64,000 nucleotides of DNA from Ferruginibacter sp. (lineage in GTDB: Bacteria; Bacteroidota; Bacteroidia; Chitinophagales; Chitinophagaceae). The translations under genes were made by a program, and so were the position numbers. The notes below the pieces were generated by a model that saw only the letters and a list, made by a program, of their open reading frames with translations, ran no database searches and was not told where the DNA came from. Location: contig DAORIB010000002.1 in NCBI GenBank assembly GCA_035438265.1, forward strand, positions 3,895 to 67,894. The letters run 5' to 3'. This document shows positions 8,072 through 26,540 of the stretch, in pieces; position 1 is the stretch's first letter, and each line of letters begins with the position of its first letter.

Positions 8072-8183
8072 TAATTAATTTAGTAATTAAGGATTAATAG
8101 TTAAGTTTTTTTCGGAACAGGGAGTATGCAAGTCAGTAACGGCATTTTGTATTGAGGGAATTATTCATTATTTATTCTTAATT

Positions 8184-9068: not shown

Positions 9069-9123
9069 CTGATTAAATCATCAGTAACAACCAAGCAATT
9101 CAGCAGTTAAGCAATTTATCTAT

Positions 9124-9885
9124 ATGGAACACTACACAATGAACCTCACACTGAAAGTGTGGAAACAAAAGAACAGCACAGCAACCGGTAACTTTGAAAC
9201 CTACCAGGTAAAAGACATCTCCTCCGAAATGTCGTTCCTCGAATTATTCGATGTGCTGAATGAACAGCTGATCCGTGAAGGGAAAGACCCGATCGCTTTT
9301 GACCACGACTGCCGCGAAGGAATCTGCGGCGCCTGCAGCATGTACATCAACGGGCGGGCGCATGGTCCCTGGGCTAAGAATACCACCTGCCAGCTGCACA
9401 TGCGTGCATTCAAGGACGGGGATACCATTGTAGTGGAGCCATGGAGAGCCGGGGCCTTCCCCGTGATCAAAGACCTGATGGTTGACCGTACTGCTTTCGA
9501 CCGCATCATCCAGGCCGGTGGCTATATTTCGGTAAATACCGGCAACGCGGTTGACGCCAACGCCATTCCCATTGATAAAAAAGATGCGGATGATGCATTC
9601 ATGGCGGCGGCCTGCATCGGTTGCGGCGCCTGTGTAGCCACCTGTAAGAACAGCAGTGCCATGCTGTTTGTAAGTGCCAAAGTTTCGCAACTGGCTTTAT
9701 TGCCCCAGGGCGAACCGGAAAGGGAATCGAGGGTGCTGAACATGGTGGCGCAAATGGACAAAGAAGGTTTCGGCAACTGCACCAACACCTATGCCTGCGA
9801 AGCGGAATGTCCCAAAGGAATTTCCGTGGCAAATATTGCACGTATGAACAGGGAATACCTGCGGGCCGGACTCAATGCCGACTAA
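9124..9885 (+). CDS. sdhB: Succinate dehydrogenase/fumarate reductase iron-sulfur subunit
   Basis: [34 protein letters not shown]. Confidence 0.97.
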
Positions 9886-9890
9886 GCCGT

Positions 9891-10817
9891 TTATTTCTTT
9901 CTGAACTTTTTATTCTTGATGGTGAACACCCTCGACAGGTTGAAGCCAAAGTGTATATCTCCTTTAAAGAAGTCGCCCGTGGTTTCGGTAATGAAGGTCT
10001 TCTCCGTCATGCCGGTTGAGTTGGTGAAATGAAGCTGGAATACGTGACCACCTGTTTCGATATCAAACCCTACCGCCAGCGAATTTTTGGTGCCGGGTAA
10101 CCGGTAATCCTGTCCCTCTACCAGCGAGATAGGCAATACGTGATAATACTCCACATTGAAGCTTAGCCGTTTCGACAACTTGATTCTTCCTCCGGCGCCC
10201 AGTGCAAAAATATCATTGGGGTCGGTTGCTGCCTGTGCCAGGTTATAATGCACGTACGACGGCATCAGCTGCAGGGAAAGACCTTCGCTGAATTTACGGG
10301 CGATGATCAGCTGGTGTGCATAGGTGATGCGTGAGGTATAATAGTTCTGTCGTTTGGGGTCTTCCCATTTCAGCGTATTGAGCATAACAGAAGAAGTGGC
10401 GCTGATGGAAATGGGTGAAGAACCACGCCCGCCTTTTGACTGGCGCAGGATCTTGAATTTATAATACGCATCGTATTGTTTCTGGTAGGTGCTGCGGCCG
10501 ATACCCACCATCAGCCGGTTGGATATGCCATAATCGAGCCCCATCCGCATGGTGGCCTGGTCGAGCCCGAAGAACTCATACGAGCCACGGTTCACCATGC
10601 CAAAGCGGTGAGAAATCTTAACGTCCATCACACCGGCTGCCACGTTCTCGATCGATTGACCATTGATCAGCCGGGTGGTTTTAAACGTAGCCGTAGCATA
10701 ATCTTTTTTTCGTTCTTTTTTACTTTCATTTTCCAGCATTTTCATCAGGTCGTCCTGTGCACGCAGCAAGGGCGAAAGAAGATTCAGCAGGAGAAACAAT
10801 ACGAGGTATTTTTTCAT
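9891..10817 (-). CDS. DUF5777-like outer-membrane beta-barrel protein
   Basis: Signal peptide, ATFKTTRLINGQS, ISHRFG, alternating beta-strands, DIETGGHVFQLHFTN, GFNLSRVF. Confidence 0.75.
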   Translation of the reverse strand: MKKYLVLFLLLNLLSPLLRAQDDLMKMLENESKKERKKDYATATFKTTRLINGQSIENVAAGVMDVKISHRFGMVNRGSYEFFGLDQATMRMGLDYGISNRLMVGIGRSTYQKQYDAYYKFKILRQSKGGRGSSPISISATSSVMLNTLKWEDPKRQNYYTSRITYAHQLIIARKFSEGLSLQLMPSYVHYNLAQAATDPNDIFALGAGGRIKLSKRLSFNVEYYHVLPISLVEGQDYRLPGTKNSLAVGFDIETGGHVFQLHFTNSTGMTEKTFITETTGDFFKGDIHFGFNLSRVFTIKNKKFRKK

Positions 10818-10835
10818 GATCAGGATTTTAACGGG

Positions 10836-11390
10836 TTAACTTTTGGGTTCGTACTTACAATCTACAGTTACATCAATGTCCTCCGATATCTTGTCAGCCA
10901 CCAGCGAGGGAATGCTCACATTGTAATCTTTCAGCTTGATGGAAAATCTGGACGTGGCATTTACTTTACCCGATTTGATGATAACAGAACCGGTGTAGCT
11001 CACTTGCCGGCTCACGCCATGCAGGTTCAGTTCACCTTCCACGGTAACCGGGTAGGCGCCGTCTTTGGAAAAATTCACCGAACTGATGTTCACGATCTTT
11101 CCCTTGAAAGTGGATTTGGGGTATTTGTTGCTCTCCACGTAGTTTTCATTGAAATGCTCCTCCATGAGTGCTCTTTCAAAATGAAAACTCTTGAGCAGGA
11201 TGGCAAACACCAGGTCGCCGGTTTGTGTGTTGAGCACACTGGATACTTCATTGTTATCCGCTTCCACTTTTTCGGGTGATTTGGCCCGCGAATAAAACGA
11301 TACTTTTCCCGATTTGGTCATCTGGATGTTTTGGGCGGCGGCACCCGTTGCCAGGCCGGCAAGCAGTACGCCGAAGAACAGTTTTTTCAT
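10836..11390 (-). CDS. YceI-family (polyisoprenoid-binding lipocalin-like) protein
   Basis: Start MKKLFF at 11390; FERALMEEHFNENYVES, GELNLHGV, FSIKLKDYNVSIP. Confidence 0.85.
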   Translation of the reverse strand: MKKLFFGVLLAGLATGAAAQNIQMTKSGKVSFYSRAKSPEKVEADNNEVSSVLNTQTGDLVFAILLKSFHFERALMEEHFNENYVESNKYPKSTFKGKIVNISSVNFSKDGAYPVTVEGELNLHGVSRQVSYTGSVIIKSGKVNATSRFSIKLKDYNVSIPSLVADKISEDIDVTVDCKYEPKS

Positions 11391-11400
11391 AGTTGTGTGT

Positions 11401-11775
11401 TTAATTATTTGGAGTTCCTGAATCGATCCATCGCTGAATACCCGCCAGGGTACAGGAGGGTAGTTTGGCTGCCCCTTTCGGCATGCTGCCATTTACTCCG
11501 GTAGAGCCCATCAGCCTGCCGTTAACAGCCTGCGTCTTCACACCGTTGTAGGTATCCAGTATCACCCCCGATGAGGCGGAGGCCGTGTTGTGGCACCCAC
11601 TGCTGTTGCAGTGTGTATTCATCAACGGCAGTACATCCGTTGAAAACTTCATCACCGTGGTGGTATCGCAGGGTACCTTTCCATCGGGATATAATAGTTC
11701 TGCCTTGTCGTAATAACAGCTTTCAAAGCTGAGTAAAACAAGGAAGCTGGCCAGGATTGTTACAATGATTTTCAT
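11401..11775 (-). CDS. Lipoprotein mono-haem c-type cytochrome with CX4CH motif
   Basis: Lipobox-like LSFES-C; CNSSGCH at 11590-11610; distal SMPKG Met; aligns with the C-terminal domain of the neighbouring di-haem protein. Confidence 0.7.
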   Translation of the reverse strand: MKIIVTILASFLVLLSFESCYYDKAELLYPDGKVPCDTTTVMKFSTDVLPLMNTHCNSSGCHNTASASSGVILDTYNGVKTQAVNGRLMGSTGVNGSMPKGAAKLPSCTLAGIQRWIDSGTPNN

Positions 11776-11802
11776 GATCGGTATTTAATGCGTGTTGTTT
11801 GA

Positions 11803-12507
11803 TTAATTATTGGGCGAACCTGCCGAGATCCATTTCTGCACCTGCGTGATGCGGCAGGCGGATAATTTATTTCCTCCCTGCGGCATGGCAATAAAGCCTG
11901 CATCATGCCGGATGCTGCCCAGCAGTTTGCCATTGAGTGCAATGCTCCGTACGCCCGCATACGTACTCAGGTCGATGCCGCCGCCTGCTGATGCAGGGTT
12001 ATGGCATCCCTTGCAGTAACTGTTCATCAATGGTGAAACAGCACCCGAGTAAGTGAACAGGGTGGTGTCGCAATCATTGCATGCATTGTTTTTGGCTCCC
12101 TGCAGGATCCATTTATAAATGAGGTCTTTTTGCGCCTGGGTAAAGGCAGCAGCCGGGGGAGGTGGCATCCGGTCTCCGCCCGTTTGGTTAAGCACTTTAT
12201 AGAGTTTGCTGTTTGCCGGGTCTCCCGGACGAACACCACCCGTAGCCATCACGTTTCCATACGTGGTAAGATTTACACCTTCCTTATGGGTAATGGCATC
12301 ATGACAACCACTCATGGCGCAACTGGAATTAAGCAGCGGCAATACGCTGTTCTGGAAGTAAACAGTATCCGCACTGCAGGTTTGTTCGCCGCCTGTAACA
12401 GGGGTTTCAATCACCTGTATGGGGATGTCGTGTTTACACGACATCATGATCAGCAGGAAAAGAAGAATTCCAATGATCTCCAGTAATCTTGAATTTACTG
12501 TATGCAT
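11803..12507 (-). CDS. Lipoprotein di-haem c-type cytochrome (CX4CH + CXXCH)
   Basis: Start MHTVNS at 12507; LIMMS-C lipobox; CAMSGCH (12301-12321) with RMPP, and CKGCH (12001-12015) with AMPQ. Confidence 0.8.
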   Translation of the reverse strand: MHTVNSRLLEIIGILLFLLIMMSCKHDIPIQVIETPVTGGEQTCSADTVYFQNSVLPLLNSSCAMSGCHDAITHKEGVNLTTYGNVMATGGVRPGDPANSKLYKVLNQTGGDRMPPPPAAAFTQAQKDLIYKWILQGAKNNACNDCDTTLFTYSGAVSPLMNSYCKGCHNPASAGGGIDLSTYAGVRSIALNGKLLGSIRHDAGFIAMPQGGNKLSACRITQVQKWISAGSPNN

Positions 12508-12554
12508 GGTTTGTGCAGGGTTTTTAAAATGGTTCTTCAAAAAGTATTGATATT

Positions 12555-12980
12555 TTATTTTTCCTGGATCATGCATCGTACCAATATCACATCGGTAAGA
12601 TACCCGGTGCAGATTCCCTTTATGGAAACCTGGGTTTTTGGTTTGATCTCATGCTGAACGATACCCTCCATGGTACACCGTACAGTGCCCATCCCGGTGC
12701 CATCCAGGGAAACGACGGTTTTTCCTTCCTGGTTTTTTGATACATCGGTCACGTAGCCCGACACTTCCAGTACCTTGTCCAGGTAATCGCGGTTCGCATT
12801 TGCTTCATTGGCTTCGTAAGCAGCCACCAGGTGCATGGCGGCAATGCGTACCGGCCTGATGTGCTGAACATCCCGGTGGGGTTTGGTATACATGCGGTAT
12901 CCCACAAAACCTGCCGTGATCAATGTCAGCAGCAGCAAGCCCCCGGTGGCAATGAGTATTTTCTTTTTACTCCTGGTCAT
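12555..12980 (-). CDS. Membrane-anchored OB-fold protein (tRNA_anti-like)
   Basis: Start MTRSKKK at 12980, one TM helix, AYEANEANANRDYLDKVLEVSGYV, VSIKGICTGYL. Confidence 0.7.
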   Translation of the reverse strand: MTRSKKKILIATGGLLLLTLITAGFVGYRMYTKPHRDVQHIRPVRIAAMHLVAAYEANEANANRDYLDKVLEVSGYVTDVSKNQEGKTVVSLDGTGMGTVRCTMEGIVQHEIKPKTQVSIKGICTGYLTDVILVRCMIQEK

Positions 12981-13053
12981 ACAAACGGTTTTATTGTTAT
13001 AAAGATGGACCCGGGTTGTATCATGCATTCCTTCTGCCTCTTTCAACCTTTAT

Positions 13054-13104
13054 CTGAACATGCCGGACCTGGATATACTTTCGCAAACCAGGCCAGCATG
13101 TCAG
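13054..13104. other. Imperfect intergenic stem-loop inside the cytochrome operon
   Basis: CTGAACATGCCGGACCTGG-N15-CCAGGCCAGCATGTCAG. Confidence 0.45.
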
Positions 13105-13133
13105 TTTTCCTGATACGCACCCTGCCCGTGTTA

Positions 13134-14708
13134 TTAATCTGAATACCGGTGTCCTGCATTCACCCAGTTGGTGATGATGGCTTTTTCCGCTGCAGTTAAA
13201 AACGGTTGAGGACTCTTAGGCATCTTCACCCATCCCGGGGCATACAATACACTGGTGTTGTTGATCTGGCTCCATTTTGATACGATATTGCAATCTGAAT
13301 CAAAATTGTAACCGGCTGCACTGTTGCCGGATCCGATATGACATCCGCTGCCGTTGCAACGGGTGGATATTAAGTTCCGTACCTGGGCAAACAACGGACC
13401 GCTGGCGATCACACCCACCGTGGTTGTTTGTGTTTTGGTACAGCCATTGGCATCCTTTACACCCATCACATAATTGCCCGCATTAAGGTTGGCAAACACA
13501 TTACTTGCCTGGTAAGCGCCTCCATTGATGTTGTAGGTGAAACCGGTAGAGCCGCTGGCTGTAACGGTAATGCTTCCGTTGTTGGTGGGTGTAACACAAG
13601 GGGTGGTGTTTACTACCGCTGTTGTAATTACAATGTTCACATTGCTGCATGGACTGGTTGCAGTAAGTGTTACCTGTGTACTGCCCAAACAGCCGTTGGA
13701 GTTTTTGGCAGTAACGGTATAGGTGCCGGCTGCCAGGTTACTGAATGTACCGCTGGCCTGGAAAGCACCATTATTCAGGCTATAGGTAAACCCGGTGCCG
13801 CCGGTAGCTGATGCAGTGATGGATCCGTTGCTTTGACCCGTAGTTGGATTAACGGTGGTGGTTGTTACCGTAACAGTTACCCCGGCACAGGGATTGGTGG
13901 ATCCCAGTGCCACCGTTGCAACCCCGGTACATCCGTTGGAGTTCTTGGCTGTGATGGTATAGTTTCCGGCTGCCAGGTTGCTGAATGTACCGCTGGCCTG
14001 GAAAGCTCCGTTGTTCAAACTATATGTGAACCCGGTGCCCCCGGTGGCAGTAGCAGTAATAGAACCATTGCTTTGACCGGTGGTTGGCTGAACCACGGTG
14101 GTGGTGACCACTACGGTCACACCCGCACAGGGGTTATTTGTTCCAACAGTGATCTGGCCGGTACCAATACAACCCGCCGCACTCCTGGCTGCAACGACAT
14201 ATGTACCTGCTGCGAGGTTGTTGAAGGTGCCGCTGGCCTGGAATGGTCCGCCATTCAAGCTGTATGTAAACCCGGTACCGCCGGTAGCGGTGGCGGTAAT
14301 GGTCCCGTTCGATTGATTGGGCGACGCATCGGTTTTTGATAAGTTAACAGTGATGGTAACACCCTGGCAGGGATCATAAGAGTCCACCTGTATCACTACA
14401 GTGTCGGTGCAGCCAACAGAGTTTCGGCCCACTACATTGTACGTGCGGAAGGGTTCAAGCCCGGAGAAGAAACCTGTGTCCTGGTAAGCGCCGCCGTTCA
14501 GGCTGTATTGGAAACCTGACCCTCCTGTTGCTGAAGCGGTGATGGTACCATTGTTCTGGTTCAGCGTGGCGGGGGTTTGGGTTGCCGTAACCGAAAAACC
14601 AATGGCATCGCAGGATGGAGCAGGGATCTCATGCTTACAGGCAAACTGAACCAGGGTGATCAGCACCGCCATCAGCCCAACAATTCTGATTGTAAGATTT
14701 CTTTTCAT
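13134..14708 (-). CDS. Lipoprotein with five SprB-like repeats and C-terminal CX4CH cytochrome c domain
   Basis: VQFA-C lipobox; five ~80 aa repeats (NGxITAxATGGTGFTYSLNxG...NLAAGxY...GC); CNGSGCH at 13338-13358 with distal KMPKSP. Confidence 0.8.
   Translation of the reverse strand: MKRNLTIRIVGLMAVLITLVQFACKHEIPAPSCDAIGFSVTATQTPATLNQNNGTITASATGGSGFQYSLNGGAYQDTGFFSGLEPFRTYNVVGRNSVGCTDTVVIQVDSYDPCQGVTITVNLSKTDASPNQSNGTITATATGGTGFTYSLNGGPFQASGTFNNLAAGTYVVAARSAAGCIGTGQITVGTNNPCAGVTVVVTTTVVQPTTGQSNGSITATATGGTGFTYSLNNGAFQASGTFSNLAAGNYTITAKNSNGCTGVATVALGSTNPCAGVTVTVTTTTVNPTTGQSNGSITASATGGTGFTYSLNNGAFQASGTFSNLAAGTYTVTAKNSNGCLGSTQVTLTATSPCSNVNIVITTAVVNTTPCVTPTNNGSITVTASGSTGFTYNINGGAYQASNVFANLNAGNYVMGVKDANGCTKTQTTTVGVIASGPLFAQVRNLISTRCNGSGCHIGSGNSAAGYNFDSDCNIVSKWSQINNTSVLYAPGWVKMPKSPQPFLTAAEKAIITNWVNAGHRYSD
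13410..14612 (-). repeat. Coding tandem repeat, ~240 bp period, five units
   Basis: CTGAATGTACCGCTGGCCTGGAA at 13741 and 13981, variant at 14221; more diverged units near 13500 and 14480. Confidence 0.85.
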
Positions 14709-14797
14709 AAACGTTATTGGATTTGTGTTTGAAAATTGAATAATCTCATTTTGTTATGCACCGGATTTTTCCCGTTTAAACACGAAAATCAGGCCTG

Positions 14798-14858
14798 TTA
14801 AAGTAAAAATCAGGTAAAATCACGCTGAACCTGCAGGAACGGGTGCTGAACCTGCAGG
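14798..14858 (-). promoter_or_regulatory. Putative LytTR-activated promoter of the cytochrome operon
   Basis: Perfect 14-bp direct repeat GCTGAACCTGCAGG at 14824-14837 and 14845-14858 (21-bp period); -7-like TACTTTAA on the minus strand at 14805-14798. Confidence 0.7.
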
Positions 14859-14880
14859 GCATTCCGGTATGGGAAGGAAG

Positions 14881-15639
14881 CTATTCGGAAAGCCAGTTTT
14901 TGAAGTCGTGTGCCCGGTCAATGGCAACGATGGTATCGAGGGGAGTGGGAGGGGAAAGTTTTACATTGATCCGGGACCGGGTATGTGCTTTCATTTCGTC
15001 AATGGCGTGATGACCGATGATGAACTGGCGGTTAATGCGGAAGAAATTTTTCGGGTTCAGCATCTGCTCCACCTGGTCAAGATTAAAATCCATTGGGAAC
15101 CGTTTGCCTTCATTGGCACACAGAAAATTGGTCTTGTTCTCCGTATAGAAATAGGCAATGTCCGTAACCCGGATAGAACGGATGGTATCGCCAAGCCGGA
15201 TGATGAACCGGTCTTTGTACTGCTTACCCGCCTGCGGGATGTTCTGGAGTATTTGTGCATAGTTCACCGAAAACGAACCCGAACGCTGCAGCAGTTTGAG
15301 TTTTTCCACGGCCCGGCGTACATCATCTTCGTCAATGGGTTTCAGCAGATAATCCACACTGTTTACCTTAAATGCCTGCAGGGCGTAGCTTTCGTAGGCC
15401 GTGGTAAAAATAACCGGGCAGGTGATGGTTACCAGGCTGAACAACTGAAAGCTGTTCCCGTCGGCCAGCTGGATATCCATAAATACCAGGTCGGGCATGG
15501 GGTTCCGGTCGAACCAGGCAACTGCTTCTTCGATGCTTGAAACCGTGCCGGCTGATTCGTACCCGGGTATTACAATGGATACAATCTTCTGCAGCCGCTG
15601 CAATGCCTGTTCTTCATCTTCCAGGATCAGTATTTTCAT
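14881..15639 (-). CDS. LytTR-family response regulator
   Basis: ILEDE, DLVFMDIQL, FTTAY, DYLLKP; C-terminal FFRINRQFII LytTR domain. Confidence 0.95.
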   Translation of the reverse strand: MKILILEDEEQALQRLQKIVSIVIPGYESAGTVSSIEEAVAWFDRNPMPDLVFMDIQLADGNSFQLFSLVTITCPVIFTTAYESYALQAFKVNSVDYLLKPIDEDDVRRAVEKLKLLQRSGSFSVNYAQILQNIPQAGKQYKDRFIIRLGDTIRSIRVTDIAYFYTENKTNFLCANEGKRFPMDFNLDQVEQMLNPKNFFRINRQFIIGHHAIDEMKAHTRSRINVKLSPPTPLDTIVAIDRAHDFKNWLSE

Positions 15640-15640
15640 A

Positions 15641-18550
15641 TTAAGCTGAATAAAGTAAAGGAAGCCGTATCACAAATTCCGTTCTCGTTTCTTCAATCAC
15701 CACTTCCTTCGGTGTTAAAATTTTATAGCGGTTCTTTATGTTTTTCAATCCCACGCCCTCGCTTTCTTCTTTTTCAAATTTGGGATTGATGTTGTTGCTC
15801 ATCACAATCTGCCCGGGTTCGGTGCGGATGTGAATGTACAGCGGTTTTTCCTTGCTGATGATGTTGTGCTTAACGGCGTTTTCGGCCAGCAACTGCAGTA
15901 CCAGCGGCGGAATCAGTCCGGTACGCATCACGTTGTAATCCACATTCACCGTTACCTGCAGGGCACTGCCGTAGCGCTTACTCTGGATGAACAGGTACGA
16001 TTTCAGCAGTTCCAGTTCTTCCGCCAGTGTTATCAGTTCCTTCTGGCTGAAGGCCGTCATCTTCCGGTAAAACTGTGATAAATGTTTGATCAGCACCGAC
16101 GCTTCTTTGGGATTGTCTTCCACAATATTCATAAGCGCATTAAAACTGTTGAAGAGGAAATGAGGGTTTACCTGGTTCTTGAGCGCATCGTATTGCAGCT
16201 GGAATTTTTCCCGTTCTTCCTGTTCGGATCTGCGTACCTTTTTAATACGGCCGAGCAATACCAGGTATACCACAATGGCCGCAGCCAGCAGGCTTGCCAG
16301 GCGGAACCACCAGGTTGTCCAGAACGACCGCCGGATATAAAAAGAATAGGTTGCCACCGGCGATGCCTGGAAATTATTATTGACCGAAGCCCGTACTCTT
16401 ATCTCATAACTACCCGGCCGCAGCTGTGAAAAGTTGATCACCCGGTCGCCGGTTGTTTCCCAGTGCTTGCTGTATCCTTCCAGCCAGTACTGGAACTTTA
16501 TTTTTTCAGGCGCTTTGTAATACGCAGCAGACAGGGTGAAGCTGAAACTGTTCTGGTGGTAGTCAAATTCCTTTTGTGTGGCGGTATCAATTATTTCATT
16601 AAAGAGACGTACTTTTTCAATTACAGCTGCCGGTACAAAACCAAATGAAGATGAAGCGGTGTTCAGGCAAACGATGCCATTATTGGTACCAATCCAGATG
16701 CTGCCATCCCGGTTCCGGGTGATGGAGTTCAGGTTAGGTTGCTGTTCTTTAAATCCCGATTCGGTGCCAAAGTGCTGTACCACATTTTTTTTGGGATTGA
16801 ATACATCAATTCCTTTTTTATTGACAGCAATGATATTATTGAATTCATCGGCGGCGATGGACGTGATGGTGATGTCTGTTAACCCGTTCCGGGTATCATA
16901 GTGGGTGAATTTTACATCATCGTATTCAAAAAGTCCGTCGTTGTAGGTGCTCACCCAGATGTGCCCGTTGTGGTCTTCAGCGAGTGAATACGCCACTTTC
17001 GACGGGAAGAGGCGGTGTGCATAGAAATTCATGAATTGACCTTTATCGAGCATGGTTACACCGGCGCCATCCGTGGCAAACCAAACCCGGTTCTTTTGAT
17101 CGATGAGGATGGAATAGACGTAATCGCTGCCCAGTCCGTCCTTCTTGCTGTAATTTACATAGCGGATCTTTTCCTGCAGGTCGTAGTTGTTTTCTTCCAG
17201 GTAGAACCGGGCAACCCCATTCAGTGTGGAAATCCAAACCTGGTTGTCTTTACCCGCAATGTTCAGGATATTGCCATAGTAAGCAATGGGATTTTCGTCA
17301 ATGCGCCGCCATTTACCGGTATGTATATTCAGGCGGAAAAGTCCTTCACCCATGGTTCCGATCCACAGGCAGCCGAACCGGTCTTTGTATAAACTGGTGA
17401 TGTCGATATGATTTTCCGGAGCTGTGATATCGTATGCACGAAGCAGCCCATCACCCAGTGAATCCTGTGTGCTTCGGTACAGGCGCAGATCCGGGGTAAA
17501 CCATAATTGGTTTTCGTCATCGGCCAGTATGGAATGTACATTCGTAAGTTTGGTATTGCCGGCCGCATACCAGTAACGCAGGTAATCGGCAGTGAAGCTG
17601 AGCAGTTTTCCTTCGCTGGTTGCCCATATATTGCCTTCGTTATCGTACTGGATATCGGTAATGCGTTTTAAATTTCCATCGGGCGACAGTGAATGGGCTG
17701 TGAAGCTGGCCGATGCTTTATTATAAGCAATGATCCCTTTTTCCTCGGTGGCAATGAAGATGGTATTGGCTGCATCGATCATATCGTTCACCTGTCCAAA
17801 CTGCCACTGGCGCCGGAAGCTGGAGTCAATAATCCTGTTACCGGGAATTTCAAATACCAGGAAGCCCTTGGACTGCATGCCGATCAGCAGCCGGTCTTTC
17901 TGCCTGGCTGCCACCAGCGATGTAACGATATTATCCGGTAACCCGTTGCGGGCAGTAAAAAAACTGATGGTTCTTCTCCCGGTTTCAAAACGGATGAAAG
18001 ACAGGCCGCGGTCGGTACCTGCAATTAACTGGATGCCATCGTTGATGTAAAGGCAATTCACATTGTCATCACTCAGGCCATCTTTTTTGCTGATCTGCTG
18101 CAGCCGGTTATTCTCATAACAGAAAATGCCTTCGCCGGCGGTGCCGATCCATAGCCTGCCGCCGGTATCACCGCATAAGGCGCTGATGGCCACCTGCGGC
18201 GCTTTTTCCCGGAATGAAAGCCGGGTGACACGCTGGTCATTCAGCAACAGGAGGCTGCCGTTTTTACAACCCACCCAAATGGCTCCCCGGCTGTCTTCAT
18301 ACAGGGCCGTGATATGCAGGTTGCCATTCACCGGCAATGAAATCTTTTCCGGATCGATGCCATTATACTTGAACAGGCCTTCCGATGTGCCGATCCACAA
18401 AAACCCCAGGTGGTCCCTGAGCAGCACGGTTGATTTAATGGTGAGATTATCTTCCTCGATGTTGACCGTTTTTGAAAAAGGGTATTGTGCAGTTGTGGTA
18501 CCCGCAACCGAAAAGAGGAAAACAAGTAAGATTGCAGCTACCGGTTTCAT
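15641..18550 (-). CDS. LytS-type sensor histidine kinase with beta-propeller and Y_Y_Y periplasmic sensor
   Basis: Repeated LWIGT propeller blades, KFQYWLEGY Y_Y_Y domain, TM helix, ALKNQVNPHFLFNS, ENAVKHN, GVGLKNI. Confidence 0.92.
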   Translation of the reverse strand: MKPVAAILLVFLFSVAGTTTAQYPFSKTVNIEEDNLTIKSTVLLRDHLGFLWIGTSEGLFKYNGIDPEKISLPVNGNLHITALYEDSRGAIWVGCKNGSLLLLNDQRVTRLSFREKAPQVAISALCGDTGGRLWIGTAGEGIFCYENNRLQQISKKDGLSDDNVNCLYINDGIQLIAGTDRGLSFIRFETGRRTISFFTARNGLPDNIVTSLVAARQKDRLLIGMQSKGFLVFEIPGNRIIDSSFRRQWQFGQVNDMIDAANTIFIATEEKGIIAYNKASASFTAHSLSPDGNLKRITDIQYDNEGNIWATSEGKLLSFTADYLRYWYAAGNTKLTNVHSILADDENQLWFTPDLRLYRSTQDSLGDGLLRAYDITAPENHIDITSLYKDRFGCLWIGTMGEGLFRLNIHTGKWRRIDENPIAYYGNILNIAGKDNQVWISTLNGVARFYLEENNYDLQEKIRYVNYSKKDGLGSDYVYSILIDQKNRVWFATDGAGVTMLDKGQFMNFYAHRLFPSKVAYSLAEDHNGHIWVSTYNDGLFEYDDVKFTHYDTRNGLTDITITSIAADEFNNIIAVNKKGIDVFNPKKNVVQHFGTESGFKEQQPNLNSITRNRDGSIWIGTNNGIVCLNTASSSFGFVPAAVIEKVRLFNEIIDTATQKEFDYHQNSFSFTLSAAYYKAPEKIKFQYWLEGYSKHWETTGDRVINFSQLRPGSYEIRVRASVNNNFQASPVATYSFYIRRSFWTTWWFRLASLLAAAIVVYLVLLGRIKKVRRSEQEEREKFQLQYDALKNQVNPHFLFNSFNALMNIVEDNPKEASVLIKHLSQFYRKMTAFSQKELITLAEELELLKSYLFIQSKRYGSALQVTVNVDYNVMRTGLIPPLVLQLLAENAVKHNIISKEKPLYIHIRTEPGQIVMSNNINPKFEKEESEGVGLKNIKNRYKILTPKEVVIEETRTEFVIRLPLLYSA

Positions 18551-19107
18551 TGTTTTGCAAATTCAGCGTTTACGGTAACATTTATTTCGGCCGCCAGTTT
18601 TTCATGAACGATCCGGGGTATTTTAATGTCGTGTTCGGAAAGTAATACGGTGAACATGCAGACCAGTTTGATCACCCCGTTCTTTACCACCAGGTCGCCC
18701 TGCAGCAGGCGTTCCTGCTCCACCCCGTGTATCACCAGTTTACCCTTGGCCCGCAGGTTGTAGCTGCCGTCTTTGGTAAAATCATCTTCTTCAATGATGT
18801 GACCGGTGAAGGTGGCGTTCGGATATTTGTCGCTTTCCATGTAGTTTTCGTTGAAGTGCTCTTTCTGCAACGGACCATTGAATCCATCGAATGATTTGAT
18901 GCTGATGGAAAAGGCAAAGGTTCTTTTCTCTGCATCCATGATGCCTTTGAGCTGGGGAGATACCGCTTTGATCAGTTCAAGCCGGGCGGTGGAATGAAAG
19001 GTAACCGTTCCTTTCTTTATCACATAAATGGCTGTTCCTGTTTTTTGAGCAGGTATAACAGCCGGAAAAAGGAACAACAGGAATAATACGCTATGACATA
19101 GGTTCAT
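18547..19107 (-). CDS. YceI-family protein
   Basis: LQKEHFNENYMES, KGKLVIHGV, DIKIPRIV; overlaps the kinase start by 4 bp. Confidence 0.85.
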   Translation of the reverse strand: MNLCHSVLFLLFLFPAVIPAQKTGTAIYVIKKGTVTFHSTARLELIKAVSPQLKGIMDAEKRTFAFSISIKSFDGFNGPLQKEHFNENYMESDKYPNATFTGHIIEEDDFTKDGSYNLRAKGKLVIHGVEQERLLQGDLVVKNGVIKLVCMFTVLLSEHDIKIPRIVHEKLAAEINVTVNAEFAKQ

Positions 19108-19150
19108 TTCTATATTGTGGTCTGGGTTTAATATTAAACAGCCTGCCCGT

Positions 19151-19180
19151 CAATGAGTGTAACTTTGGTTACATTCATTG
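19151..19180. promoter_or_regulatory. 13-bp-arm palindrome, possible operator or RNA hairpin
   Basis: CAATGAGTGTAAC-TTTG-GTTACATTCATTG (one mismatch). Confidence 0.4.
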
Positions 19181-19233
19181 CGGGCTACAGTAGTATCAGG
19201 AATGCTCTGCAGGAAAATACAGGTGCGCTCACC

Positions 19234-20955
19234 TTACCGGTGAATAATAATTTTCTCTGTTATCACTTCCTCTTTCAGTTTCAGCCTTGCCAGGTAAACG
19301 CCCGTTTGCAGGAAGGGAAGATCAACCGGTAGTCTGCCTGAAAGGTTGTTGAACATTTTTTGAAATACCCGTTTGCCATCGGCGGCGTACAAGGTGATCC
19401 ATTCCACCGGCCTGTCGGAATACACAAAGAGCTGGCTGCCGGTAACCGGCACCGGGTAAAGAAATACACTCCGGGCAAAGGTTTTGCTTACACTTACGGT
19501 ATCGGAGTAAGTAATTCTTCCCGACCGGTCGGTAATCTTCAAGCGGTAATACAGTTTTGTGAAAACGGGTATGTTGTGACGGAAACTGTAGTTGTTGGCA
19601 GGCGGGATATTAATGGCATTCACTCTTCCGGCAGCACTGAAACTGGTTCCGTCGGTGCCGAATTCCACTTCAAAAAATGAAACATTCTGTTCATTCAGCG
19701 TTCGCCATTTAATTTCATTGTAGCCGTTTAATGCCGTAGCGGAAAAATCAAGTACGGTTACCGGCAAAATAGTACTGGTGATCACTTTATATAATACACC
19801 GTTCCTCGACAAGGCATACAGGTCGCCATTTTCTGCTTCGCCAAAACCGGCGATATTGCCCGGCAATCCGGCCTGTATGCTGGCGTCAAAACCACCGGAG
19901 CCATTTTGTTTGATCACCCAGGTATTGCCCGACACATAATCGGAGCAGATATAATACCCATACATCGCGGCAAATTCGGCGCCCCGGTACACATGACCAC
20001 CGGTGATGGAAAAACCACCCGTGGTTCCATTATGGGGATATACAAAAACAGGGGCAATGTAACTGCTTTGCGCCTGGCATCCTGCAGTGTTGTAAGCAGC
20101 ATTGCCTTCGTAACAGCGCCATCCGTAATTAACACCGCCGGATGTGGCATAGGTGCGGAAATCAACTTCCTCCCAGGCGCCTTGTCCCACATCGGCAATC
20201 CACATATCATGGGTAAGCCGGTCGAAGCTCCAGCGCCAGGGATTGCGCAAGCCCATGGCAAAGATCTCGTCACGCACAGATGGATTGCTTACATAGGGGT
20301 TATCGGCAGGAATGGTATAGTATGGAGGGGTATTGAAATTATCCACGTTGATGCGGATCATTTTTCCCAGCAATGAATTTCCGTTTTGAGAATTATTATC
20401 CGGGTCGCCGCCACTGCCGCCATCGCCGGTGCCAAAATACAGGTGGCCATCATGACCAAAGAGTAATTTCCCGCCATTGTGATTAGAATAAGTGGGATGC
20501 GGAATGGTGAGTATCACCCTGCCGGTTGTTTCATCGGCAGCATTGGGGTTGCCGGCCAGGGTTTGAAAACGGGTGATCCGTATGTCGCCGGCGGTATTGG
20601 TATAATAAACAAAGAAGTACCGGTTGCTTGCAAAGCCCGGGTGAAAAGCCATGCTTAATAAGCCACGCTCACCGCCACCGGCAATGCTATCCGGTATGTC
20701 CAGGAAATTGCCGGCCTGCAGTACGCCATTGGATACAATCCGTACCCGGCCATCCTGCTGTACAATGAAAAGCCGGTTGGTTCCGTCGCCGGCATTCACT
20801 ATATCCACCGGCGCCGTTAGTCCCGATGATACTACCGGGTTAAATATCAGAACCGGGGTGGGTTGTGCTGAGGAACGGCCATAAAATAAAAATGGTACTG
20901 CTACAATCAGCAACAGTACCACCGTATTTCTTTTAGCTGTATACAATGTACTCAT
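19234..20955 (-). CDS. PQQ-dependent (GSDH/sGDH-like) sugar dehydrogenase with T9SS C-terminal domain, paralog 1
   Basis: GERGLLSMAFHP, NHNGGKLLFG.DGHLY, GLRNPWR, WIADVGQ; C-terminal LYPVP...TGVYLARL. Confidence 0.88.
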   Translation of the reverse strand: MSTLYTAKRNTVVLLLIVAVPFLFYGRSSAQPTPVLIFNPVVSSGLTAPVDIVNAGDGTNRLFIVQQDGRVRIVSNGVLQAGNFLDIPDSIAGGGERGLLSMAFHPGFASNRYFFVYYTNTAGDIRITRFQTLAGNPNAADETTGRVILTIPHPTYSNHNGGKLLFGHDGHLYFGTGDGGSGGDPDNNSQNGNSLLGKMIRINVDNFNTPPYYTIPADNPYVSNPSVRDEIFAMGLRNPWRWSFDRLTHDMWIADVGQGAWEEVDFRTYATSGGVNYGWRCYEGNAAYNTAGCQAQSSYIAPVFVYPHNGTTGGFSITGGHVYRGAEFAAMYGYYICSDYVSGNTWVIKQNGSGGFDASIQAGLPGNIAGFGEAENGDLYALSRNGVLYKVITSTILPVTVLDFSATALNGYNEIKWRTLNEQNVSFFEVEFGTDGTSFSAAGRVNAINIPPANNYSFRHNIPVFTKLYYRLKITDRSGRITYSDTVSVSKTFARSVFLYPVPVTGSQLFVYSDRPVEWITLYAADGKRVFQKMFNNLSGRLPVDLPFLQTGVYLARLKLKEEVITEKIIIHR

Positions 20956-21042
20956 GATACAGGGTTTATCGGATGATAGACTTAACGCCTCCTTAACACA
21001 AATACAGTGCCAGAGGACCTTTTCGCCAGAATGAATACCAAT

Positions 21043-22770
21043 TTACTGGATCACCACTTTTTCAACCAGGTATTCTTCTTTTGTTTTCAGGCGGAGCAGG
21101 TATACACCTTTGGGCAGGCTGGGCAATGAAATGGCAATGGAGCCAGCACTGTTTTCCAGGTTACGGCGGAAGAGCAACCGTCCATCAGTGGTAAAAAGCT
21201 GAATCATTCCCACCGGTTTTTCAGTAATGAATTTCAGCTGGCCGCCGGTTACCGGGCTTGGAGATACTTTTACAGATGCTGCCTGTTTTCTATTAAGTAC
21301 CAGCACCGTTGAATAGGTAACACGTCCATCTTTGGCCGTTGTTTTCAGCCGGTAAAAGAGTTTTTCAAAACCGGCTACTAAATGGCGGAAGCTGTATTGA
21401 TTCTCTACGGTGCTGTTCAATGCGCTGATTTTCCCCGCATGTGCATACCTGCTGGCATCATCGCTGTATTCAATTTCGTAATGAAGGATATCCCGTTCGT
21501 TGGCGGTTTTCCATTTCAGTTCGTTGTACCCGGTAAATGCACGGGCAGTAAATTCAAGCAGTGATACAGCGAGCGGCCCCCCGCTGTTGGTGGTAACTTT
21601 ATAAAGCGTGCCGGTTAAAGTAACAGCATAAAGGGCTCCGTTCTCATCTTCTCCAAATCCTACAATGGAAAGCGGTAGTCCCGTTTGCATGGAAGTGGTC
21701 CATCCGCCACTGCCATTGGGTTTTATCAGCCAGGCATTGCCGGACACATAATCGGCGCAGATATAATAACCATACAATGCAGCATATTCAATGCCACGGT
21801 ATACGTGTCCGCCAATCACCGAAAATCCACCCGTTGCATTGTTGTGCGGATAAACAAAAATGGGAAAGCTGTAATTGGCAGGTGGTAAGCAACCGGCGGT
21901 TACAAAATCATCGTTGCCTTCGTAGCAACGCCAGCCGTAATTGATACCTCCCGAACCGCTGAGGGGCAGGTGATTGATCTCTTCCCAGGCTGCTTCACCC
22001 ACATCCGCCACCCATACATCATGGTTCAGCCGGTCGAAACTCCAACGCCAGGCATTACGCAGGCCTATGGCATAGACTTCGTCTTTTACATTCGGATCAT
22101 TTACGTATGGATTGTCCGCGGGGATGGTATAATACGGGGCCGTATTGAAATTATCCACGTTGATGCGGATCATTTTGCCCCAGAGTATATTTCCATTCTG
22201 TGCATGATTGTCGGGATCGCCACCCGGGCTTCCATCGCCGGGTGTGAAATACAAGTGACCATCGGGTCCGAAAAGCATTTTACCGCCGTTGTGGAAGCTG
22301 GTGGTAATGGCCGGAATGGTCATGATGACCACCCCCGTGGTTTGATTGATGGCTGTATTGGCGAGCGGGTTCGCTGCTTTAAACCGGGTTACCCTGATGT
22401 CATAATTGGATGTGAGGTAATAAATGAACAGGTATCCGTTGCTGGCATAATTGGGATGAAAGGCCATGCTGAGCAGCCCGTTTTCGTTGCCGGGTGGGAG
22501 GCTGTCGTGTATATCCAGGAAAGCAACTGCCTGCAGCACACCAGCCGAAACGATACGTACTTTGCCGGTTCGTTCCACAATAAATAACCGGTTGGTTCCG
22601 TCATTTGCATTCACAATATCGAGCGGGGAACTGAATCCTGTAGTAATCACCGGGGTGAATGTGAGTACCGGCGGCGATTGGGCGAAGGATGAAGCAATGG
22701 AAAAGAGTAGGGTGGAAGATGCCAACAGCACCGCTGCCAGACTTCGTTTTAAAGTGTACAGTTTGCACAT
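21043..22770 (-). CDS. PQQ-dependent (GSDH/sGDH-like) sugar dehydrogenase with T9SS C-terminal domain, paralog 2
   Basis: ENGLLSMAFHP, FHNGGKMLFGPDGHLY, GLRNAWR, WVADVGE; C-terminal VSPSP...KGVYLLRL. Confidence 0.88.
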   Translation of the reverse strand: MCKLYTLKRSLAAVLLASSTLLFSIASSFAQSPPVLTFTPVITTGFSSPLDIVNANDGTNRLFIVERTGKVRIVSAGVLQAVAFLDIHDSLPPGNENGLLSMAFHPNYASNGYLFIYYLTSNYDIRVTRFKAANPLANTAINQTTGVVIMTIPAITTSFHNGGKMLFGPDGHLYFTPGDGSPGGDPDNHAQNGNILWGKMIRINVDNFNTAPYYTIPADNPYVNDPNVKDEVYAIGLRNAWRWSFDRLNHDVWVADVGEAAWEEINHLPLSGSGGINYGWRCYEGNDDFVTAGCLPPANYSFPIFVYPHNNATGGFSVIGGHVYRGIEYAALYGYYICADYVSGNAWLIKPNGSGGWTTSMQTGLPLSIVGFGEDENGALYAVTLTGTLYKVTTNSGGPLAVSLLEFTARAFTGYNELKWKTANERDILHYEIEYSDDASRYAHAGKISALNSTVENQYSFRHLVAGFEKLFYRLKTTAKDGRVTYSTVLVLNRKQAASVKVSPSPVTGGQLKFITEKPVGMIQLFTTDGRLLFRRNLENSAGSIAISLPSLPKGVYLLRLKTKEEYLVEKVVIQ

Positions 22771-23042
22771 GATGTAAGTTTAACAGGATATCCGGTAATG
22801 GCTTTTTCAAGCAATCATGTGGCTTCTGCAGGCGAAAGTAGCCCATCAATTTAAAAAATTGCTTTATGTTTCGCACAGTTTTCGCACATTCTGTCGTTCT
22901 AGTACCGGATGTTTATGAGAACGGGCAACGGGGTTGTGCAGGGTTTTGCTGTGCTGCATTTGCTTTTGTACAGCGCAACAGCCGATTTAGCCGTCTTGTA
23001 CAATAATCACTAATTTTAGCACTACTAATCCCCAACGAACGT

Positions 23043-26000: not shown

Positions 26001-26540
26001 AAACTGCGTTCACTTTCCGGCAAAATACGATGGAACCCGAACCGGAGTATGGTAACAACGTTTGCCTACCGCAACATCAAGAATGTGCTTAATACCGTCG
26101 GGCCGAAATTCAATAACCGCAATTACCTCGTGCTGCAGGATGTGTTTGAACCCTCCGTGACGTATATCCATAAAAGCAATTTCAGGTTAAGCTTTACGTA
26201 TGCCTACGGGCAGAAACGCAATACGATCGATTCGCTGGAACGGGCAAGCAGTCATACGCTTACTGCCGACATGCGGTATAATATACTTAACAATAGTACA
26301 CTCAGTGCCCGTTTTTCACTCAACCAGATCAACTTCACCGCATATTCCGGTGCCGCCAATACCACTGTGGGATACATTCTGCTGGATGGATTGTTGCCCG
26401 GAAAGAATTACCTGTGGAATCTGGAATTCAGCAAAAGGCTGGCAGGCAATATCGAGATCAGCATCCAGTACGACGGAAGAAAGCCGGGCGATACCAGAAC
26501 GGTGCATATTGGCCGGGCTTCTATCCGGGCCATCTTCTAA
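23043..26540 (+). CDS. Large conserved Bacteroidota outer-membrane beta-barrel-like protein of unknown function
   Basis: 1165 aa, TTG start, signal peptide, [14 protein letters not shown], many alternating aromatic strands, C-terminal Phe. Confidence 0.7.

Follow-up and report, generated by a model that had tools for sequence, protein, structure and literature searches.

The Ferruginibacter sp. genome GCA_035438265.1 carries a five-gene operon that is co-conserved across the Bacteroidota and is accompanied by a triad of genes for a YceI protein, a sensor kinase, and a LytTR regulator. We tentatively interpret operon and triad as a Bacteroidota-wide, self-regulated envelope redox (electron-transfer) module, with two unrelated dehydrogenase genes adjoining it. 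A literature search found no published description of the module, and comparison with literature and databases turned up no characterised system of such composition, as an earlier reading of the DNA from its letters (the sequence-only reading) had supposed. The window, i.e. the whole stretch of DNA analysed, comprises 64,000 nt of contig DAORIB010000002.1 (positions 3,895–67,894). Between positions 9891 and 22770 it contains eleven ORFs, all on the minus strand and thus sharing one direction. They lie where that reading had placed eleven co-directional genes, and Pfam and NCBIfam annotate them essentially as it stated. Also as it described, the locus ends tail to tail with sdhB (9124–9885, plus strand), which converges on the barrel gene across a gap of 5 nt. 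This arrangement is specific to Ferruginibacter, so the adjacency does not sustain the proposed sdhB/quinone link.

Gene neighbourhoods at 82 DUF5777-anchored loci from across the Bacteroidota, 65 of them with enough flanking sequence, show that the eleven genes fall into three layers. The first is a five-gene core encoding an OB-fold anchor, a di-haem lipoprotein, a mono-haem lipoprotein, a YceI protein, and the DUF5777 barrel, encoded at the end of the core operon and the best conserved of its components. The complete core (YceI, cytochromes, OB, and barrel) is present in 55 of the 65 loci with enough flank, and the core genes share one strand in all loci counted. YceI adjoins DUF5777 in 64 of the 65 loci, at least one cytochrome gene is found in 64 and at least two in 59, and the OB gene, whose place inside the operon permutes by lineage, occurs in 59. 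The second layer is the translationally coupled triad YceI_A–kinase–LytTR, which adjoins the core in 27 of 50 loci. The third consists of lineage-specific neighbours, here including both GSDH genes. No further recurrent gene family was found beside the core at the DUF5777-anchored loci. Clustering is far above chance for nine of the eleven genes, the exceptions being the two GSDH genes. The idea that the locus is one co-conserved unit therefore holds for the cytochromes, both YceI proteins, the OB protein, the barrel, and the propeller-kinase/LytTR pair, and fails for the GSDH pair, which is absent from relatives. DUF5777 proteins form 1934 clusters at 50% identity and are carried by at least 597 species genomes. 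Cultured carriers include Ferruginibacter profundus, Adhaeribacter terreus, and Parasediminibacterium paludis. Metatranscriptome coverage of the module is very thin.

The two YceI proteins, YceI_A of the triad (18547–19107; 186 aa, signal peptide) and its periplasmic paralogue YceI_B of the core operon (10836–11390; PF04264 E 2.4e-15; 184 aa, signal peptide), score 38.8 and 57.6 bits against the PF04264 cut-off of 23.7 and are 35% identical. The YceI_A stop codon overlaps the start of the kinase gene (15641–18550) by 4 nt, and the order YceI_A–kinase–LytTR, with overlaps or gaps of at most 12 nt, recurs in nearly all triad-bearing loci; YceI_A is in every case the gene immediately before that of the kinase. 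The kinase has a signal peptide, Reg_prop beta-propellers (PF07494), a Y_Y_Y domain (PF07495), a transmembrane segment, and a LytS-type His_kinase domain (PF06580). The response regulator (14881–15639) joins a receiver (PF00072) to a LytTR DNA-binding domain (PF04397).

Between the LytTR stop and the start of the SprB-cytochrome gene lies a putative LytTR operator (14823–14859, minus strand), a direct repeat of CCTGCAGGTTCAGC with its two copies 21 bp apart. Direct repeats spaced by about 21 bp are the usual geometry of LytTR sites. A PF06580 kinase, a receiver-LytTR regulator, and a 21-bp direct repeat at the target promoter, the last a predicted operator, are thus all found, as in LytTR two-component systems. 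The putative operator is the second-best repeat pair in the 64 kb, the best having 20-bp spacing and lying elsewhere, and it is kept in loci L004, L005, L006, and L008 within otherwise divergent intergenic DNA. Repeat pairs with the core GTTCAG number 29 in 1.36 Mb, versus 0 in three shuffles. Nearly all are spaced by exactly 21 bp and lie on the operon strand, and 17 of the 29 are directly upstream of the first core gene. Across the phylum, a related repeat with 21-bp spacing was found ahead of the core operon, and the same box stands before YceI_A in L045 and before cupredoxin genes in L062 and L085. Judged from these comparisons, the conserved direct repeat ties the triad to the core, and the presence of a conserved LytTR-type putative operator ahead of the operon supports the earlier suggestion that the propeller-kinase/LytTR pair governs it. 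AgrCA, ComDE, and LytSR likewise combine a PF06580 kinase and a LytTR regulator with direct repeats of about 21 bp upstream of the target operon. In contrast to these, the sensor domain here combines a large periplasmic double propeller and Y_Y_Y and is coupled to a YceI paralogue that is secreted, and the module is not a peptide pheromone system. YceI_A may act as a ligand-presenting co-sensor, handing a hydrophobic ligand, probably isoprenoid or quinone-like, to the kinase, and the LytTR protein would switch on the operon from the direct repeat.

The first gene past the putative operator encodes a SprB-repeat ‘stalk’ lipoprotein (13134–14708) in which five SprB repeats are joined to a C-terminal domain resembling a cytochrome (CNGSGCH ... 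Met-Pro); this domain can be aligned with domain 1 of the di-haem protein (E 3e-5). Among the loci compared, this gene occurs only in L004–L006 and L071, and it is a Ferruginibacter-specific accessory. The core itself follows with an OB-fold protein anchored to the membrane at its N-terminus (12555–12980; tRNA_anti-like PF12869, E 8.5e-21), a di-haem c-type cytochrome lipoprotein (11803–12507; CAMSGCH and CKGCH; PSCyt1 and Cytochrome_CBB3), and a mono-haem c-type cytochrome lipoprotein (11401–11775; CNSSGCH, distal Met-Pro, C-terminal PNN). Public gene calls have later starts for the OB-fold protein (141 aa), the di-haem protein (234 aa), and the second YceI (184 aa).

The proposal of di-haem and mono-haem lipoproteins fits the cytochrome-like domains and the conserved Cys, Cys-His, and Met-Pro residues of the putative haem sites, but three of the four haem motifs in the window are CX4CH (CNGSGCH, CAMSGCH, and CNSSGCH), and only one (CKGCH) is CXXCH. 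Across 26 diverse orthologues of the di-haem protein, Cys, Cys-His, and distal Met-Pro never vary; there are two invariant Met-Pro pairs, and the lipobox Cys is followed by an invariant His at +2. The CX4CH plus CXXCH pattern is found in 58 di-haem orthologues. At the same site, mono-haem orthologues have CXXCH (51), CX4CH (27), or CX3CH (4), and comparison of orthologues indicates that CXXCH and CX4CH are interchangeable at one equivalent haem site. The 124-aa mono-haem lipoprotein has no Pfam match and shares 47% identity with domain 2 of the di-haem protein; fusions of the two occur, as in L060. Homologues of about 350 aa with an extra Cytochrom_C domain (P0346, P0353, and P0360) are similar, judged by domain list. 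The closest PDB sequences to the di-haem protein are c-type cytochromes, the best being FoxE (5MAB, E 5e-5). This match is local (query residues 77–139; E 2e-3 with a profile) and spans the ‘W-I-x-x-G-A’ helix and the RMPP ligand region. The structure model of the di-haem protein is poor (pLDDT 66) and returned no fold match.

The DUF5777 protein (9891–10817; PF19089; 308 aa with a cleavable signal peptide) matches its profile over the full length (positions 1–247 of 247; 325 bits versus a cut-off of 23.1, E 2.8e-97) and is predicted to have an outer-membrane beta-barrel fold. Its AF2 model (pLDDT 87) has 12 strands and 145 PDB matches at E ≤ 1e-3; among the matches listed, all are outer-membrane barrels, and the best Foldseek matches are NanC, FapF, OmpG, KdgM, and COG4313, with TM of about 0.45–0.5. 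The family keeps invariant His, Asp, and Glu residues, and the His residues sit in regions predicted to face outward. As modelled, the barrel is too small and narrow to sheathe a cytochrome domain, and the conduit role raised in the sequence-only reading is unlikely in the form of a cytochrome sheath because the model has only 12 strands. A 12-stranded barrel is without known precedent as an electron conduit, an observation that counts against the electron-transfer interpretation.

MtrCAB, PioAB/MtoAB, and Cyc2 resemble the module in that genes for an outer-membrane barrel and for c-type cytochromes, lipoproteins among them, occur together, with surface redox partners. The likeness to Cyc2 includes one distant relative, P0154, the only one in which a CxxCH domain is fused to the DUF5777 barrel. 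Barrels of these systems have 16–26 strands. Membership in the porin–cytochrome conduit class was rejected, given 12 predicted strands versus the 16–26 required, and given that no protein of the window has more than two haems, where this class has a multi-haem (usually deca-haem) periplasmic partner or a fused haem domain. The module cytochromes are one- to two-haem, class-I-like, His/Met proteins, not deca-haem bis-His proteins, the known systems have no known YceI and OB components, and no sequence homology of the module to porin–cytochrome conduits was found.

In the proteobacterial yceI–yceJ pair, YceI is linked genetically to cytochrome b561, which suggests quinone-linked periplasmic redox chemistry. 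There, as here, YceI is paired with a haem electron-transfer protein, but the partner is an inner-membrane b-type protein, whereas the module has c-type lipoproteins and an outer-membrane barrel. In Cellvibrio japonicus, Cbp2D and Cbp2E contain an X158 YceI-like quinone-binding domain and the c-type cytochrome domains X183/X132, and share with the module a YceI-type isoprenoid/quinone-binding domain together with two mono-haem c-type domains outside the cytoplasm. They have been proposed to be electron carriers to surface or extracellular redox enzymes, and CjX183, a cytochrome with a potential of +193 mV, reduces the copper of LPMO (PMC8981238, PMC12542752). Cbp2D/E are, however, single secreted multidomain proteins with CBM2 and FN3, found in Gammaproteobacteria, whereas the module has separate lipoproteins and periplasmic proteins, plus the barrel, the OB anchor, and a dedicated two-component system. 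The module was not assigned to the Cbp2D/E type, since its domains are on separate proteins and Pfam detected no CBM. PDB sequence searches gave no similarity to the solved X183 domain.

In other lineages, redox proteins of other kinds are encoded beside the module. Giant PKD proteins with 3–6 plastocyanin/azurin-type sites occur there in eight loci of Saprospiraceae/Lewinellaceae; three of these multi-cupredoxin proteins were scanned, and one had a recognisable T9SS tail. CxxCH plus Reeler ‘choice-of-anchor V’ T9SS proteins adjoin the module in five loci, and the domain fused to the barrel in P0154 is of this kind. Redox accessories adjoin the module in only about one-fifth of loci, and in some Flavobacteriales the T9SS neighbour is a non-redox BNR propeller. 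Recruitment of redox proteins beside the module in other lineages makes an electron-transfer role more plausible, and the His/Met haems and cupredoxins suggest a high-potential chain. The three His/Met haems of the two lipoproteins may trade electrons with the periplasmic cytochrome c pool. YceI_B could ferry a lipid-soluble molecule, either carrier or substrate, towards or away from the barrel, which might be the outer-membrane gate or cofactor site by which the chain reaches the surface. Surface partners would be swapped by lineage, the SprB-stalk cytochrome here and multi-cupredoxin or CxxCH proteins elsewhere. The module encodes no quinol dehydrogenase and no terminal reductase or oxidase, which weighs against such a chain.

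A bolder and unlikely form of this interpretation is a new, Bacteroidota-specific trans-outer-membrane electron pathway, induced via the YceI-assisted sensor, in which the 12-stranded barrel would hold or gate a lipid-soluble or loop-bound cofactor supplied by YceI and link high-potential cytochromes to exchangeable surface redox proteins (cupredoxin arrays, choice-of-anchor V haem proteins, and SprB-stalk cytochromes). If true, extracellular electron exchange in Bacteroidota would follow principles unlike those of Mtr, Pio, or Cyc2. Bacteroidota are dominant degraders in soils, waters, wastewater, and guts, both environmental and host-associated, and we know of no dedicated cell-surface electron-exchange route described in them. 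An electron conduit would widen the range of known designs for crossing the outer membrane and give functions to four currently orphan families, DUF5777, the Bacteroidota tRNA_anti-like OB proteins, the CX4CH PSCyt1-like lipoproteins, and choice-of-anchor V. With well-defined parts, a sensor of its own, and an operator that can be recognised, the module is open to direct testing.

Somewhat unlikely, in our estimation, is that the module handles a hydrophobic ligand with no trans-envelope electron path: the barrel and YceI_B would move an isoprenoid lipid in or out, YceI_A and the kinase would sense it, and the cytochromes would oxidise or reduce it or be accessory. Candidate lipids are a quinone, a carotenoid, or another polyprenyl compound. 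There are two YceI paralogues, one translationally coupled to the sensor, and a dedicated YceI co-sensor suits such a system at least as well as an electron system, to the detriment of the envelope redox interpretation. The COG4313 family is thought to take up hydrophobic compounds, and its channel from Pseudomonas putida F1 is among the structural neighbours of the barrel, listed with generic small barrels. YceI-like domains bind polyisoprenoids and ubiquinone-8, according to work cited in PMC8981238, and cofactor or lipid handling was already an alternative in the earlier reading. Against this, the two or three cytochrome domains are as strictly kept as YceI (59–64 of 65 loci), the accessories elsewhere are cupredoxins and CxxCH proteins rather than lipid enzymes, and no lipid-modifying enzyme or inner-membrane transporter is co-conserved at the DUF5777-anchored loci. 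Handling of a hydrophobic redox lipid would give YceI its first defined physiological setting in Bacteroidota.

We consider it decidedly unlikely that the module oxidises metal, chiefly Fe(II), or performs redox-coupled iron handling, with the barrel admitting metal, the cytochromes oxidising it, and electrons passing to the aerobic chain. The models for this are FoxE and the Cyc2–rusticyanin–Cyc1 chain. We know of no Fe(II) oxidation in module carriers, which are, as far as is known, aerobic heterotrophs, and this speaks against it. The top PDB hit by sequence for the di-haem protein is FoxE, described in PMC10654088 as the cytochrome receiving electrons from Fe(II), yet the similarity is local and weak, as the E-values above show. 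FoxE of the FoxEYZ system (Rhodobacter ferrooxidans SW2) is likewise a di-haem c-type protein with His/Met ligation and a disulfide, but both its haem motifs are CXXCH and descriptions do not class it as a lipoprotein; FoxY, a PQQ protein, is echoed by the GSDH neighbours here. The cupredoxin arrays of Saprospiraceae recall rusticyanin, and the invariant His, Asp, and Glu of the barrel would also fit. However, known systems for iron oxidation make no use of YceI or the OB protein, an Rfam search gave no match, metal riboswitches included, and no conserved foxY or foxZ equivalents occur at the DUF5777-anchored loci. Assignment as a FoxE-type iron oxidase was rejected, the match being only local and a conserved PQQ-protein or DMT-transporter partner being absent.

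The two GSDH-family beta-propeller dehydrogenases (19234–20955 and 21043–22770; PF07995 E 3e-36 and 2e-38) are tandem paralogues, 57% identical. Their T9SS tags are confirmed as type A tails (TIGR04183, 35.1 and 36.7 bits versus a cut-off of 23; the Pfam Por_Secre_tail scores, 27.0 and 25.2, are borderline relative to the threshold of 27), whereas the label of sGDH-type enzymes is not borne out, with only 58.9 and 57.2 bits versus 434.55 for TIGR03606 and a match just to the broad PF07995. The sequence-only reading had these T9SS-secreted GSDH/PQQ enzymes oxidise surface sugars and send electrons via the haem lipoproteins to quinone, with the propeller kinase sensing sugar, and this is very improbable: the genes do lie immediately upstream in the same direction, sensors with Reg_prop and Y_Y_Y domains respond to glycans in hybrid two-component systems, electrons from fungal AA12 PQQ dehydrogenases go to a cytochrome fused to the enzyme, and a lineage-specific surface partner is conceivable because other lineages also put T9SS cargo genes beside the module, but the closest relatives lack the GSDH genes at their syntenic loci (L004–L006), as do all 79 other loci, and these genes have no operator repeat near them in the 64-kb window, lie upstream of the regulatory triad and outside the regulated operon, score under the sGDH subfamily cut-off, and are accompanied by no pqq genes within the window. 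The caveat that the dehydrogenases might be incidental is the better reading, and the GSDH pair are lineage-specific neighbours outside the conserved module. Weak ‘GSDH’ matches at other loci are merely shared T9SS tails, and in L004–L006 an RND pump gene occupies the GSDH position.

Profile searches recovered eleven consecutive ORFs on the minus strand, from 22770 down to 9891, with the expected profiles, and the co-directional array from which the sequence-only reading started is therefore real. The array opens with two paralogous beta-propeller proteins of the GSDH family (19234-20955 and 21043-22770, minus strand), which share 57% identity and each carry a T9SS type A tail. These are followed by a triad consisting of YceI_A, whose stop overlaps the start of the next gene by 4 nt, a sensor of 969 aa that joins Reg_prop propellers and a Y_Y_Y domain to a LytS-type kinase core, and a regulator with receiver and LytTR domains. 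A 524-aa lipoprotein (13134-14708, minus strand) combines five SprB repeats with a cytochrome-like domain at its C-terminus. The remaining five genes, hereafter the core, encode a membrane-anchored tRNA_anti-like OB protein, a di-haem lipoprotein whose two cytochrome c domains match PSCyt1 and Cytochrome_CBB3 (11803-12507, minus strand), a 124-aa mono-haem lipoprotein paralogous to the second domain of the di-haem protein (47% identity), YceI_B (35% identity with YceI_A) and a DUF5777 protein (E 2.8e-97), the last gene, which converges with sdhB. Outside the array the window carries ordinary chromosomal genes (sdhCAB, PNPase, gyrA, ribF and others). Activated-sludge contigs carry identical genes, and close homologues bear the name Ferruginibacter. 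Coverage of the module was low and patchy in metatranscriptome contigs from four wastewater/sludge runs. The proposed check for pqq and cytochrome-maturation (ccm) genes returned none within the 64-kb window, an Rfam search of 8000-24000 gave no match, and a generic scan for sigma-70 promoters and terminators gave a result not above shuffles.

The DUF5777 family is sizeable, comprising 1934 clusters at 50% identity. A search with a 9-sequence alignment, in which each species was represented by one genome, yielded at least 597 relatives, and we inspected the loci of the best 80, those most similar to the query, with 10-kb flanks. Their labels include Chitinophagales, Cytophagales, Flavobacteriales, Saprospiraceae/Lewinellaceae and 'Bacteroidales'. 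ORFs in these loci were searched with the window proteins, and all neighbours were also clustered de novo. Among the 65 loci with sufficient flank, a YceI gene adjoins the barrel gene in 64, at least one cytochrome gene is present in 64 and at least two in 59, the OB gene occurs in 59, and the core is complete in 55. The core genes are co-directional in these 65 loci without exception, and within the core the OB gene alone changes position. The triad lies adjacent in 27 of 50 long-flank loci (upstream in 20, downstream in 7), and the kinase gene is always directly preceded by YceI_A, frequently with a 4-nt overlap. De novo clustering revealed no further recurrent families apart from antisense shadow ORFs and a small number of neighbours restricted to particular lineages. 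The neighbourhood analysis thus bears out co-conservation of the core and triad, but not of the GSDH genes, which are limited to the window and contigs identical to it; an RND pump gene occupies their position at the syntenic loci of the closest relatives (L004, L005 and L006). Weak 'GSDH' matches in other loci proved to be shared T9SS tails without dehydrogenase domains. The SprB-repeat cytochrome is confined to Ferruginibacter-like genomes, as is the adjacency to sdh, and a functional link to sdhB by adjacency was rejected on this ground. One complete module, with the gene order of Chitinophagaceae loci, lies on a MAG contig labelled as the betaproteobacterium Methylophilus rhizosphaerae (L022, CALRQJ020000005.1); given that gene order, the label or binning is probably wrong.

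In k-mer counts for the 300 bp that precede the first core gene, a G+C-rich word, TTCCCGTTC, stood out from an A/T-rich background. It takes the form TTTTCCCGTTCAG[C/G], directly repeated at a distance of exactly 21 bp. A weight-matrix scan of both strands of 1.36 Mb of loci, with spacings of 20-22 bp allowed, found 29 repeat pairs versus 0 in three shuffles. All pairs but one are on the operon strand, nearly all have the 21-bp spacing, and 17 immediately precede the core's first gene. Elsewhere, pairs stand before YceI_A (L045) or genes for giant cupredoxin proteins (L062 and L085). Known LytTR sites, such as those of AgrA and ComE, likewise consist of two direct repeats with a periodicity of about 21 bp. 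In the window, the variant CCTGCAGGTTCAGC occurs twice, 21 bp apart, at 14859-14823 on the minus strand, between the LytTR stop and the start of the SprB cytochrome; this pair ranks second among those in the 64 kb, and it is kept in four relatives though the intergenic DNA around it is divergent. We infer that the genes from the SprB cytochrome through DUF5777 would form a single LytTR-activated operon. Where the triad is downstream, a second copy of the repeat pair sits just past the LytTR stop (L013:15268, L016:15162, L017:11400, L020:15386 and L022:15154) and may mark further regulon members. This copy is followed downstream by a gene for an ECF sigma factor in L013 and L017 and by one for a small lipoprotein in L020. 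Further weak matrix matches with 20-bp spacing occur in the window at 56201 (TTTTTCCCGGGCAGTT/ACTGATCCGTTCACTG) and 28368 (CCCTTCAGGTTCAGCG/TTTTTCTATTTCATTG), both on the minus strand; they could serve this LytTR regulator or a different one, or have arisen by chance.

The module in the window has four haem motifs, with the correction that three are CX4CH (CNGSGCH, CAMSGCH and CNSSGCH) and a single one is CXXCH. Across 26 diverse di-haem orthologues, the lipobox Cys, a His two residues on, both Cys-...-Cys-His motifs and both distal Met-Pro pairs are invariant, as are C143, C146 and C218, which may form disulfides. The combination of CX4CH and CXXCH is found in 58 di-haem orthologues, and the mono-haem motif is CXXCH in 51 loci, CX4CH in 27 and CX3CH in 4. 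That spacer length varies while the Cys, Cys-His and Met positions stay conserved argues for genuine haem c sites. The nearest solved sequence to the di-haem protein is the di-haem FoxE (E 5e-5; profile 2e-3), a local similarity, followed by a haem domain of hydrazine synthase and then by cytochromes c6. Structure prediction using database homologues gave a weak model (pLDDT 66), for which no fold match was found. The di-haem and mono-haem proteins are fused in L060, and three homologues of about 350 aa with an extra Cytochrom_C domain (P0346, P0353 and P0360) resemble this fusion by domain list. The mature di-haem lipoprotein begins with Cys-x-His-(Glu/Asp)-Pro, the His being the one invariant in the 26 orthologues, and the SprB-stalk cytochrome shares this N-terminus (CKHEIP). 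This start could serve in sorting or as a ligand; an ATCUN-type metal site would be unlikely with an acylated Cys amine.

The DUF5777 barrel is the best-conserved component, with a bit-score retention of 0.81 in L004 and 0.55 in Adhaeribacter, compared with 0.25-0.48 for the OB and mono-haem proteins. Its AF2 model (pLDDT 87) has 12 strands and a helix within the first loop, and its PDB neighbours are the small 12-14-stranded barrels NanC, KdgM, FapF, OmpG and COG4313 (TM about 0.45-0.5), to which the predicted likeness is generic. A cytochrome domain would not fit inside the barrel as modelled. Invariant residues include H70, H190, N266 and G291-F292, and many lie near strand ends and in loops. 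Outer-membrane barrels usually have a periplasmic N-terminus, and by this rule these residues would face outward. That is not the usual pattern in outer-membrane proteins and suggests that the loops fold to make a functional site. The OB protein has an N-terminal anchor and a conserved Cys pair, and no cofactor motif is obvious in its alignment; the sole solved relative in a PDB sequence search is 3F1Z (E 0.05), an uncharacterised structural-genomics entry. CcmE is also a membrane-anchored periplasmic OB fold, as the OB protein is by prediction. A CcmE-like haem chaperone was considered and rejected, since the alignment lacks an invariant His in the C-terminal tail ('NKPH' is present but non-invariant).

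Lineage-specific accessories adjoin the module in about one-fifth of loci, the SprB-stalk cytochrome being that of Ferruginibacter. In eight Saprospiraceae/Lewinellaceae loci, co-directional upstream genes encode giant proteins (1100-1950 aa), each combining PKD domains with 3-6 copper sites of the plastocyanin/azurin type (genes include L046:2-4840, L051:1-3318, L054:1-3825, L061:1946-7348, L062:181-5001, L076:1730-7582 and L085:3556-7464). The putative operator stands directly before two of these genes (L062 and L085), and of three proteins scanned, one (L085) has a recognisable T9SS tail. Such multi-copper-site arrays on one surface protein seem unusual. Five loci encode a 'choice-of-anchor V' protein (NF041895), in which G-x-T/S-G-x-P ... 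CxxCH is followed by a Reeler-like domain, with a T9SS tail (L049:5381-6298, L082:8577-9425, L039:7390-8178, L014:6512-7702 and L015:3049-4299); in two of the loci its gene lies within the operon. In the DUF5777 cluster representative P0154, this domain is fused to the barrel N-terminus. Judged by their domains, the accessories point to redox chemistry at the cell surface. Some Flavobacteriales have, between the LytTR and di-haem genes, a BNR/YCF48-like propeller with a T9SS-like tail (L058:6145-7392 and L081:638-1906), and the accessory is therefore not always a recognisable redox protein.

The closest characterised analogues are Cellvibrio Cbp2D and Cbp2E, which combine a YceI-like ubiquinone-binding domain with two c-type cytochrome domains, one of which (+193 mV) reduces LPMO copper (PMC8981238; PMC12542752). 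Modelled barrel size, haem number and homology all set the module apart from the Mtr, Pio and Cyc2 porin-cytochrome families, nor does it belong with FoxEYZ or share the Cbp2D/E architecture; it is alike to all of these in logic only. The literature searched contained no mention of DUF5777, PF19089 or choice-of-anchor V and no account of this gene set, in agreement with the earlier statement that no characterised system of this composition is known. We would rank the module as a novel form within an already-known kind, the extracytoplasmic electron-transfer modules. A categorically new way across the outer membrane is a real possibility, albeit a small one.

Taking together the components, their co-conservation, the putative operator and the redox proteins that recur nearby, we tentatively interpret the module as a regulated envelope electron-transfer system. 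The cupredoxins and the predicted His/Met haems point to a high-potential chain, which could feed the aerobic chain with electrons from surface donors or pass them on to high-potential surface acceptors. The coupling of a YceI paralogue to the kinase suggests that the signal would be the same kind of hydrophobic ligand as that carried by YceI_B. Transport of a hydrophobic ligand, with the cytochromes secondary, is a somewhat unlikely alternative. Oxidation of Fe(II) or another metal, by analogy to FoxE or to Cyc2-rusticyanin-Cyc1, seems improbable. Sugar oxidation by the GSDH proteins as the electron source, as first proposed, is very doubtful, since their genes are missing from all relatives inspected and no repeat pair was found near them in the window scan.

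Several other genes in the window deserve mention. A CCP_MauG di-haem cytochrome c peroxidase gene (49162-50382, minus strand), about 27 kb from the module, encodes a further periplasmic c-type haem protein in this genome. A 1165-aa ORF with a signal-peptide-like N-terminus (23043-26540, plus strand) is divergent from the first GSDH gene and has zero Pfam/NCBIfam matches. An 810-aa protein (31144-33576, minus strand) is an odd mix of a BlaR1-type M56 peptidase, a GldM third domain and a TonB C-terminal domain. Between sdhA and sdhB lies a 294-aa ORF (8184-9068, plus strand) with only sub-threshold glycosyltransferase-2 similarity, an insertion also kept in the Ferruginibacter relatives L004-L007.
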